Origin: a virus
Lineage: Duplodnaviria; Heunggongvirae; Uroviricota; Caudoviricetes
Length of the DNA: 11,222 nt
IMG/VR virus record: IMGVR_UViG_2703719366_000012
Reading direction: 5' to 3' (one strand)
Shown here: piece after piece, positions 6,001 to 9,000 of the stretch
How positions within the stretch are numbered: position 1 is the stretch's first letter
How the letters are laid out: the number at the start of each line of letters is the position of its first letter
Made by a program: the position numbers

Positions 6001-9000
6001 AGGGTGCCCCAGGCGATCGCCGCTGCGACAAAATCATCCACATCTTTCACCAGCCGATCCCTCCGTTCGACGATCTCACGGTAATATTCAGAGCTGTGAC
6101 TGCGCATACGGGCCACCAGCAGAGGCGGCATTGCCTTTTCGATCGCCGGTAACAGAGCCTGCATTTTTTCAACTGCATCAGGGGTGTCTTTCTCTATCCA
6201 GCGGAAAATTTTCTGGGTATTGCGAGCCAGGGCTTCCGGATGGCTGTCGTCGTACAGTTCAGGAAACGTCATACCCAACTCAAAATAAGCCTGGGTTATT
6301 CCAGCTGCCGGAACTTTTTCGCCATCAGGACGCGCCCAGGCATTCATCGCCATGCGGATGTGTTCATGCTTGATTTTCATGAATCCCCCCTTGGTTAGAA
6401 GGCGGATTATGATCAGAATCGGGAATGACAACCGTCGGTATGTGTAACTCATATTTGAGCGCCCCGGCAGTGACTGCCTGAATTAGCAACGCCCATTTCC
6501 ACGGAACGTCTTCCCCCCACATGCTGACTGTGGTTTTTGACGTTCCTAGAGCGGCGGCTGTTTTAACAACTCCGCCAAAATAGCCTAATACTTCTGATTT
6601 TTTCATGAGTCGCTCCATAAAACTGAACGCCAAAAGTTTAATAATCAAAACCAAAGAAAGTCAAGAAACAAAACCATCTGTGTTTTAAAATCAAAACATG
6701 AACAAGCAAACAATATCTGAACGCATAACCCAACGTATGCATGCGCTAAACTTGAAAGGCAAAGACCTTGTCAATGCCACTGGCGCATCAAAAGGCTCCG
6801 TAAGTCAATGGATGAACGGTGGAGGAGCGCCGTCCTCGCGTTACATAAGTTCACTGGCAAAGATATTGAAAGTAAACGAAAATTGGCTTCTTAATGGAGG
6901 AGAGTTAAATACAGGTGATTCGCTTGATCTATCTTTACCGCCGATAAAAACGGTTCCGCTACTATCACTTCAGCAGGCAGCAAGCTGGAGTGATTATATG
7001 AAAAATTCCTCAATAACCTCTTGTGTGCAGCTTGTCGGAGAAATCCCGGCCAATACCTTTGCTGTTGTTCTAGAGAGTGACAGTATGTCGACATCTGGTG
7101 GTGGAGTTTCCATCCCAAATGGTTCAACAGTTTTTGTTGATCCCGATCGAATCGTACAACCAGGAAATATTGTCCTTGCCTTACCCAAAGGGACCACAAC
7201 GCCTGTCATTCGCAAACTGGAGATAGAAGGGCCGGATATTCTTTTAGTCCCCACGAATCCTCGCTACCCTTCAATTATGCTGGATGATCTATCTTGCATA
7301 TTGGGAGTATGCTTTAAAATTCAACAAGATATTTAACCAACCTCATCTATTTGATTAACTGTATGCCATCGTAGTGATGGCGTAACAGCTGCCTGCTTAA
7401 AATGTTTTGATAAAAAAACATTGACCTTAAATGTTCGTTTTTCTAAACTTCATTCATTCCCTCACCCCGCCCCACAGAATGCAGGGCAATACTTCGAGTT
7501 ACCAGGCAGTGGTCAGGGGTTAAGTAGCCAGCCCGAGGCGTAAGAACATGACGGCAGGGTTCAACTTTAATAACTATGCAGCAGGTTTTTGTTCCGCTAC
7601 CCCGGCGTTAAGGGGAAATGAGGTCAACATGGATACGCTCAATCTTGGCAACAACGAATCTCTGGTATGTGGCGTGTTCCCCAACCAGGACGGTACGTTC
7701 ACCGCGATGACGTATACCAAAAGCAAAACGTTTAAAACTGAAGCTGGCGCGCGTCGCTGGTTAGCCAGAAACACTGACTGATGAGGTTGACGATGGAATT
7801 TAAAGATTTACCTCCTTCAATCCAGGAGATTGCAGCACACACACTTCGTCATCGTCTGAACGAACTTGAATTGGAATCGGTAACGAAAAAAGACACTGAT
7901 AATATGGCTCGTAATGTGCGCGATGCGTTTACCGGATTGTATTTCTGTGCGTCTATAAATAAACACGACTCAGAGAGTGTGGCAAATAAAATTGCAGAAA
8001 CGACAGCGCAAAACATCAATACGAAACCAACGGAAGAAGAAATTGATCAGTTTGCTCATGATGCTGGTTTAAAAAACAAGAAAGAAAAATCGCCATATGC
8101 GGGGAACATGTTTGTTTATGACAATCTCATCAGAATTCGTGGCGAAATTCCGGCGGAATACCTGGCAAGAGTCCATCAGGCATTGCTTAAAAATTTGGAA
8201 ACAGAATTATTTGATGGCAACACTAACGGTTTCTTCATGGTATCAGGCCTTGAGAAAGACTGGGATGCAGAAAAACGCTGGAATGTTGCTACATGGTTAT
8301 TCAGTAACAGAGCCGCTGCACTGGAAGCTTCGGCATGTATTTGCGGCCTGTTCTTAACAGACCACAAATATAATCTGGATGTGTACAGTTATATTTACGC
8401 TGAACACGGTCCACTCTGGATTGACTGGTAATTATAAGGAAACACCAGCAGGGCCGCGGCGACCAACAGAACGATTAAAATCAATAATGCCATTATAAAG
8501 GACATTATTTAATTTATCGTCGAATGCTGATTCTGTGAGCCTCAACTCTGAATGAGTTTTTAATAACCCTGATTGCCTGAGTTGATTTACCAGGCATTCA
8601 ATCTGTTTTTCAATAAGCGGATTTCTTTTTTTGTTTGGCATTTTATCCTCCATTGAGGTTCTGGGTTAAAAATGGAGACCAACACGCTGTCACGTGTGGT
8701 CGTGCGCCGGACACGGATAAGAATCCGGTACTGACAGTTTACTGAAAGGATATTTCCCTGAAAAGTCAGTGCATAACGCGAAAGCGTACGGCGAAGCTCT
8801 TTCCCTTAGAAGGCTTGTCGTTAGATTTCTTCGAACGTGCGCTTCCGGTTGTGGCACTCCGCGAAATGGCGCGGCGGTAAGTATGGCGGGGTTATTCCTT
8901 CCCCATTGAGGACACCGGGTTGTCAGGTTGACCATACGCTTAAGTGACAACCCCGCTGCAACGCCCTCTGTTATCAATTTTCTGGTGACGTTTGGCGGTA

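Follow-up and report, generated by a model that had tools for sequence, protein, structure and literature searches.

DicF is one of the oldest known bacterial small RNAs (sRNAs) and affects cell division, metabolism, and the virulence of enterohaemorrhagic Escherichia coli. Its precursor has so far been treated as a plain "long untranslated region", the term used in reviews, which also call the region the 3′ untranslated region (UTR) of ydfC. In E. coli K-12, the whole region is transcribed from dicBp, an internal promoter was not found, and a 1146-nucleotide (nt) transcript ending at DicF is a major species (PMC10448788). In the same study, RNase III was required for a 190-nt DicF species, whose 5′ end was mapped by primer extension and which accumulates in stationary phase, while the 53-nt DicF and its mature 5′ end depended on RNase E; Faubladier 1990 is cited there as the source for the RNase III processing of the leader. 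I analyzed the corresponding locus in a viral DNA of 11,222 nt (IMG/VR record IMGVR_UViG_2703719366_000012, Caudoviricetes), which is called the window here. An O157:H7 prophage matches the window at 100% identity by sequence comparison. A prediction made earlier from this DNA had described the interval just upstream of DicF as a hairpin-rich noncoding block. It was found that a covarying and putatively pseudoknotted RNA domain adjoins DicF in this block, and that the same domain recurs far beyond the dicBF loci.

The window sequence from 8701 to 9100 aligns with the ydfC-dicF interval of the K-12 (JM109) Qin prophage at 92.6% identity on the same strand, and the sequence around ~8842 is collinear with K-12 in the alignment. 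Thus, from 8701 onward, the block does not represent inserted sequence when compared with K-12, a point that had been raised for checking. The K-12 homology begins only at 8701, and the preceding residues (8654-8700) belong to the module of a 69-aa gene. By homology, by its location on the DicF strand, and by the presence of dicB in the operon, the block from 8701 onward is identified as the untranslated leader of a dicBF-type operon transcript of the O157:H7 prophage and as the counterpart of the 190-nt DicF precursor. Since a promoter scan predicted no plus-strand promoter in the block and none is internal in K-12, the domain should be transcribed with the operon and not from a gene of its own. 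The original prediction had also considered a separate structured RNA. What stands of this idea is that the 9-base-pair (bp) stem on which it focused is an arm of a covarying domain; the domain itself has no promoter of its own and belongs to the operon transcript and the DicF precursor.

The four stems named in that prediction are all present in the sequence, shifted by 1-2 nt. By single-sequence statistics they are weak, being borderline above chance. A perfect 9-bp stem with a loop of 3-25 nt was seen in 1.9% of 1000 dinucleotide shuffles, the block has 10 perfect stems of at least 5 bp versus 5.5 ± 2.3 in shuffles (P ~0.05), and its folding-energy z-score is -1.5 on the plus strand and -2.0 on the minus strand. 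The suggested check of covariance across homologs came out in favor of two of them, as both the 9-bp stem and the GGGG/CCCC stem covary. On the other hand, the CCGGA/TCCGG stem shows no compensatory change, and the ACACG/CGTGT stem lies in a different module. The two covarying stems are helices P4 and P3 of a closed four-helix-junction domain, which is the most conserved part of the whole region (Table 1).

The domain alignments drew on IMG/VR, phage, and K-12 sequences. In a MAFFT alignment (A3), 93.5% of the cells are paired, a share that falls to 35-55% if the partners are slid, and there are 15 pairs with both sides changed. In an alignment of 100 sequences fitted to a covariance model (A5), 97.1% are paired and both-side changes occur at 16 of the 31 pairs, a result reached by none of 500 shuffles; as the sequences are close relatives of one another (the model has an effective sequence number of 1.42), the independent covariation events are modest in number. 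The covariance model R1 gives the window 136 bits. When the domain is folded by itself, P1, P2, P3, and P4 appear in the minimum-free-energy structure, and the thermodynamic z-score is -0.4, meaning that energy does not single out the domain. The case for the structure is thus one of comparison, not of energy. P4 is wholly rewritten in some lineages (GGAUCACCA/UGGUGAUCC and GAGCUACCA/UGGUAGCUC), and in P3 both the sequence of the stem and the length of the loop vary. In contrast to these stems, the apical loop of P4, UUGACCAUACG, and the junction, GGUAAGUAUGGC, are nearly invariant, and this holds with either one as the search anchor; two search anchors fall inside the domain. A 14-mer, TTTGGCGGTATCAG, searched against genome contigs gave only chance matches in unrelated taxa, none with the block. 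The candidate loop-loop pseudoknot is paired in 99.8% of the cells and has one covarying pair (UA 92, UG 4, CG 3), which makes it plausible but thinly supported. Another candidate, an H-type pseudoknot between the loop of hairpin B (UCCUU) and a GAGGA 3′ of it, was discarded because it is inconsistent across the variants, as judged by eye. G·U accounts for 367 of the 3062 pair cells in A5 and is the commonest state at four pairs. Since these pairs would be mismatches on the minus strand, the domain RNA is read from the plus strand.

Table 1. Coordinates of the RNA domain, its flanking elements, and the neighboring genes in the window.
Feature	Position	Strand	Remarks
Four-helix-junction domain	8849-8961	+	~113 nt, closed
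P1	8849-8855 / 8955-8961	+	
P2	8859-8863 / 8870-8874	+	
P3a	8876-8878 / 8914-8916	+	encloses hairpin P3
P3	8888-8891 / 8901-8904	+	GGGG/CCCC stem of the original prediction
P4	8917-8925 / 8945-8953	+	9-bp stem of the original prediction, GGGTTGTCA / TGACAACCC; 19-nt loop; 26 nt 5′ of DicF
P4b	8926-8928 / 8938-8940	+	extends P4
Candidate loop-loop pseudoknot	8881-8886 / 8932-8937	+	GUAUGG with CCAUAC in the P4 apical loop
Linker CGCCCUCUGUUAUCAAU	8962-8978	+	AU-rich, single-stranded; RNase E-dependent cut at the 3′ edge, 8978/8979
DicF sRNA, 53-nt form	8979-9031	+	Rfam RF00039 match at 8980-9031, 75 bits versus gathering score 48
DicF with intrinsic terminator hairpin and U-tail	8979-9036	+	hairpin free energy (dG) -15.4 kcal/mol, then T-run
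Long imperfect helix	8772-8794 / 8831-8853	+	21 pairs, hypervariable interior; fold z-score -2.7
Predicted hairpin ACUGAC...GUCAGU	8730-8770	+	inner GGA/UCC stem; from minimum-free-energy folds
Hairpin CCGGA-N12-TCCGG	8707-8728	+	stem 8707-8711 / 8724-8728, 12-nt spacing; in the spacer common to K-12 (8701-8771)
Imperfect palindrome GACCAACACG-CTGTCA-CGTGTGGTC	8677-8701		holds ACACG/CGTGT; in the module of the 69-aa gene, not in the DicF leader
ACACG/CGTGT stem	8682-8686 / 8693-8697		
216-aa gene	7781-8431	+	phrog_2151, function unassigned; with the 69-aa gene replaces K-12 ydfB and ydfC
69-aa gene	8432-8641	-	phrog_4274, function unassigned; convergent with the operon

How widely is this domain distributed? 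The 119-nt domain sequence was found in 4315 of 5426 complete E. coli genomes, at 8963 places and up to 8 per genome, none of them annotated. Another 61 records that carry it are from phages, among them Stx2c phages and the functional lambdoid phages mEp460, Ayreon, cdtI, and 2H10. It was also found in 511 plasmid records, mostly of P1-like phage-plasmids. In P1 and P7, it lies in the ban leader, ~27 nt after the predicted start of Pban. The domain lies ~280-290 nt downstream of the leftward early promoter in an Stx2c phage and Ayreon and a few hundred nt downstream of it in cdtI, and it is placed after several open reading frames (ORFs) in the window and K-12. The mEp460 layout is as in the window; dicB, recE, xis, and int are located past the terminator of DicF, and the single domain copy has no counterpart in the rightward operon. 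A location downstream of an early promoter is seen in cdtI, Ayreon, the Stx2c phage, mEp460, and the P1 ban leader. An N-like gene was not found in mEp460, and the absence of N in general was judged from annotation and from PHROG scans covering a few ORFs.

What follows the domain is an sRNA-like sequence with a terminator in most cases. Among 31 representative variants, 27 (including the P1 ban leader) have a seed-like spacer and an intrinsic terminator within 34-80 nt of the domain, and a 28th case is visible by eye. These terminators have dG values of -14 to -21 kcal/mol. The linker and the seed are the variable part among the homologs. In the window, the position of the linker cut was taken from the K-12 53-nt DicF sequence (PMC10448788) and the Rfam match, and the block itself is not a part of RF00039; this model of 52 positions matches 8980-9031 only and nothing in 8654-8978.

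The other end of the cassette is a long helix, for which RNAalifold predicted 21 conserved pairs in 26 homologs. The homology of many relatives starts exactly at 8772, the base of this helix, which is consistent with a single mobile cassette. The position 190 nt back from the DicF 3′ end is ~8842, in the 3′ arm of the helix. Thus, a predicted double-stranded stretch of 21 pairs covers the site where the 5′ end of the 190-nt species would be generated, and the long helix is a probable RNase III substrate. By coordinates, the 190-nt species would start ~7 nt 5′ of P1 and contain exactly the domain, the linker, and DicF. The basal pairs of the long helix (8848-8853) overlap with the 5′ strand of P1, and the two helices are therefore mutually exclusive. 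A preprint on Pas sRNAs and papers on RNase III cleavage sites held nothing specific to this interval.

These features may be combined into one model, which I consider the most probable one and in which the block is a processing cassette consisting, in this order, of an RNase III-cut long helix, the four-helix and pseudoknot domain, the AU-rich linker, and the DicF seed with its terminator. RNase III would cut the long helix near 8842, which would free the 5′ strand of P1 so that the domain closes, and would leave a short single-stranded tail with a 5′ monophosphate. The tight fold of the domain would then leave the linker as the sole accessible AU-rich single-stranded site. Finally, RNase E, stimulated by the 5′ monophosphate, would cut the linker to give the 53-nt DicF with a precise 5′ end. 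The domain would serve as a processing and folding scaffold for DicF-type precursors that guides and insulates the processing. I estimate the probability of this scaffold role at roughly 0.5.

Several points weigh against this model. The homology, the helices, the covariation, the strand, the noncoding status, and the link to a downstream terminator were observed in the present sequences, whereas the nuclease dependences and the absence of an internal promoter come from the K-12 homolog only, and the scaffold role was inferred. The RNase III cut, published as position "813/814", is placed in the window only by the 190-nt product size. The changes in the long helix are one-sided in the 26 homologs, with pairing kept and without compensatory changes. 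In P1 and P7, conservation covers the domain (79-82% identity, with compensatory changes) and does not extend to the DicF part. Three variants (L305, L320, and L350) keep the domain although a terminator is absent within 125 nt, and L305 and L320 are the most divergent ones and are fully compensated; hence, the selection on the fold is not tied only to the adjacent sRNA. Moreover, the junction and loop sequences and the pseudoknot are invariant across lambdoid phages and P1, and a simple barrier needs neither. The invariant loops, the pseudoknot, and the retention of the domain in P1 without DicF and in other variants without a terminator suggest that the domain does more than processing.

What else could the block or the domain be? 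A protein-coding role on the minus strand is contradicted. The earlier claim that the block has no convincing ORF needs a correction, since a 95-codon ORF starting with TTG spans it on the minus strand (8690-8977), but the noncoding status was confirmed. The frame is open over 95-96 codons in 34 of 101 homologs, and several phage records carry a hypothetical minus-strand coding sequence over the domain; open frames are common in GC-rich structured RNA. The length classes of the domain (116, 118, 119, 120, 121, 122, 123, and 124 nt) keep no frame, the variable columns are spread evenly over the codon positions (31, 30, and 32), and the ORF has no PHROG family match. These three observations indicate that the ORF is not coding, and the conserved frame with synonymous-biased substitutions that would have spoken for a protein is absent. 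In addition, the changes in the domain are compensatory for RNA pairing, and none of 4345 RefSeq records has an annotation at the domain. The proposal that P4 is the RNase III structure releasing DicF is hardly tenable, too. P4 is the strongest perfect stem of the block and lies close to DicF. However, RNase III usually needs roughly two helical turns, and the nine pairs of P4 with three of P4b are well below this length. The published mapping also contradicts the proposal; the mature 5′ end depends on RNase E, and the RNase III-dependent end belongs to the 190-nt species, ~75 nt further 5′ (PMC10448788). The primer used for mapping the RNase III end anneals to the loop of this very hairpin, and so the cut must be 5′ of it.

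Other explanations give the domain a job beyond trimming. It may act in cis on RNA polymerase or on termination with a job like that of HK022 put, so that early-left-operon transcription would pass the intrinsic terminator directly downstream, and later ones too, in lambdoid phages lacking N. The early location in the repressor-controlled leftward operons of functional phages, the strong terminator after the domain in most variants, the mEp460 genes past the DicF terminator together with the apparent lack of an N-like gene there, the invariant loops that would suit a specific macromolecular contact, and a boxA-like UGCUCUC directly 5′ of the domain in PL-proximal variants all speak for it. However, neither the R1 model nor nhmmer found a match in HK022, R1 found none in HK639, the similarity to putL and putR is at chance, a four-helix junction is unlike the two stems of put, and mEp460 has one copy only with none in the rightward operon. 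The 1146-nt transcript ending at DicF is a major species in K-12, so readthrough is not obviously efficient (PMC10448788). A put-like action is a serious candidate but an unlikely one. Still less probable, in my estimation, is that the domain is a functional RNA in itself, with the 190-nt species, or the 5′ fragment of ~137 nt that RNase E cleavage would leave behind, binding a factor of the host or the phage and serving, for instance, as a decoy or a protein-binding RNA. The strongly conserved loops and junctions, the compact pseudoknotted fold, the stability of the 190-nt species in stationary phase (PMC10448788), the retention of the domain where the downstream sRNA differs or is absent, and its multiple copies in most E. 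coli genomes would all fit such an RNA, but no own promoter is predicted, no match to a known protein-binding RNA family was found in Rfam, and no partner is known. A sensor, namely a riboswitch or an attenuator that switches the downstream terminator by a ligand or a cellular state, is improbable. The layout resembles such a device in that a spacer of variable sequence and then an intrinsic terminator come after a conserved domain with a junction and a pseudoknot, and the invariant GGCGGUA of the domain resembles the 5′ arm of many terminators. However, none of the riboswitch families in Rfam gave a match at E up to 10, the downstream genes share no common metabolic theme, the compensated terminator variants GGUGG/CCACC (L247, L266, and L333) are unmatched by any change in the domain, and the P1 terminator is unrelated. 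An antiterminator pairing between the domain GGCGG and the terminator 3′ arm, which appeared in the fold of the 190-nt RNA, was rejected because the terminator variants do not covary with the domain.

Taking a broader view, the domain might represent a new class of phage regulatory RNA with an autonomous function, not merely a device for trimming DicF. I regard this as possible but doubtful. If it is true, the domain either modifies RNA polymerase or termination in the early-left operons of lambdoid phages lacking N and in the P1 ban operon or binds a host factor, and the variable seed-plus-terminator sRNAs including DicF would be passengers on the domain.

The seed-like sequences deserve a separate description. 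Before the similar GGCGG...CCGCC terminators, the spacer is DicF in some loci and another seed-like sequence, of which there are at least six, in the rest. Seed variants lie 30-80 nt 3′ of the domain in L263, L351, L275, L333, L248, L304/L273/L378, L252/L361, L246/L281, L309, and L287, and Rfam recognizes only that of L333, as DicF. The differing seeds may constitute a family of uncharacterized DicF-like sRNAs with different targets. In phage vB_Apl-pPE4 (L275, 2600-2740), a tandem duplication covers the seed and the terminator together with the 3′-terminal part of the domain; the host label of this phage, Actinobacillus, is odd given its E. coli-type DicA, YdaT, Kil, and exonuclease VIII genes. 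In L305 (5193-5545), ~320 nt of further GC-rich untranslated sequence lies between the domain and the first terminator (5513-5547), and this stretch holds GGCGUAAGGUGGUCAAAGG, a faint echo of the domain motifs. IsrK and C4 antisense RNA matches were found in L287 (1171-1359, plus strand) and L252 (4732-4920, minus strand), in each case on the strand of the domain and 300-400 nt past it. Some early-left operons therefore line up several regulatory RNAs. On the 5′ side of the domain, promoter-proximal variants (L380 at 3985-3998, L273, L304, L255, L301, L248, L274, and L303) have UGCUCUC(A/U) directly before P1, where the DicF-type loci have GUGCGCUUCC within the RNase III helix. This sequence resembles GCUCUU, the boxA element that serves as the NusB/S10 site in antiterminators of the nut and rrn types.

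The upstream part of the block gave less clear signals. The CCGGA/TCCGG stem is invariant with a loop of CACGGATAAGAA or CACGGGTGAGCA, and there is no compensatory change among 33 haplotypes, meaning that variation neither supports nor refutes the structure. The hairpin between it and the long helix shows one-sided changes only. The inner segment of the palindrome, CGCTGTCACG, is inverted to CGTGACAGCG in the homologs L184 and L198, which suggests that the palindrome is a DNA-level site (an operator or a recombination site) and not an RNA hairpin. The only promoter-like site on the minus strand is at 8669-8640, overlapping the start codon of the 69-aa gene.

The gene order of the locus is the repressor gene, a ydfA-like gene, the 216-aa ORF, the 69-aa gene, the block, DicF, dicB, a ydfD-like gene, and recE. 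Because the 69-aa gene is convergent with the operon, the operon transcripts should run antisense through it. In the dicB 5′ UTR (9043-9183, plus strand), a sub-threshold STnc100 match was found (34.5 bits versus gathering score 47, E 1e-5), and the STnc100/PasD family of prophage sRNAs may have a diverged relative here. Elsewhere in the window (1596-1770, minus strand), a full-length match to the sok antitoxin RNA (RF01794, 113.5 bits) identifies a putative hok/sok-type toxin-antitoxin locus in the same prophage.

Why does this matter? Besides ~80% of complete E. coli genomes, active lambdoid phages and the ban leader of P1/P7 carry the domain, and it offers a concrete structure for the excision of DicF-type sRNAs from a transcript. 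It also raises the question of how lambdoid phages lacking N transcribe past the following terminator. A cassette that carries several different seeds may serve prophages as a platform for evolving new sRNAs.

Comparison with known RNA families gave no relative of the domain. No Rfam 15 family, including riboswitches, ribozymes, sRNAs, C4, IsrK, and STnc100, matches 8654-8978 at E up to 10 with permissive filters. ARAGORN found no tRNA or transfer-messenger RNA (tmRNA) in the window, and Rfam gave none in 8400-9250 at E up to 10; an identity as a tRNA, a tmRNA, or an RNase P substrate is thus unsupported, and the likeness to tRNA is limited to the four helices. The "M3-like RNA" of HK639 is unrelated. 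At E up to 10, the R1 model had no match in HK022 and none in HK639, where the annotated putL-like RNA was missed as well, nhmmer with the domain did not match HK022, and shuffled local alignment placed the similarity to HK022 putL and putR at chance (P 0.1-0.4). Membership in the put family was rejected by all three methods, the shared motifs GCGCGGCGG and ACCAUGCG being at the chance level. The leader and its nuclease processing are already known, and the conserved domain appears to be new; it is in neither Rfam nor the literature compared, which leaves out Faubladier 1990, King 2011, and Lobocka 2004, and an earlier description is possible.

How does the locus compare with the described systems? 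The K-12 Qin dicBF locus (Faubladier 1990 as cited by later work; Balasubramanian 2016; Ragunathan 2023) is the same locus by homology, by strand, and by the presence of DicF and dicB downstream, with ydfB and ydfC at the place of the 216-aa ORF and the convergent 69-aa gene of the window. As far as they were available here, the K-12 papers describe the sizes and the nuclease dependence but not the four-helix domain, its covariation, or its presence in P1 and in loci with other seeds. In P1, the "dicF-like region" (68472-68573, AF234173 / NC_005856) overlaps with the 3′ half of the domain (L003 1989-2104). The ban leader conserves the domain and not DicF, and an unrelated terminator hairpin stands instead. 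The put RNAs of HK022 and HK639 are alike in being structured RNAs early in the leftward operon of lambdoid phages apparently lacking N, upstream of terminators and with conserved unpaired nucleotides. They differ in having two stems in ~70 nt instead of a four-helix junction with a pseudoknot in ~113 nt, and no significant sequence or model similarity was detected; the putL-like RNA of HK639 is clearly of the HK022 type, unlike the domain. In contrast to put, the domain exists as a single copy per phage. MicL, CpxQ, and SroC are alike in another way, as RNase E releases each of these sRNAs from a longer mRNA by cutting an AU-rich single-stranded site beside a stable structure, and a terminator forms the 3′ end. 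Updegrove 2019 reportedly found that stem-loops direct the precise RNase E processing of MicL, a 3′-UTR-derived sRNA. Unlike these three sRNAs, the cassette described here would have an RNase III step first, and its domain is large, invariant in sequence, apparently pseudoknotted, and common to loci with different seeds.

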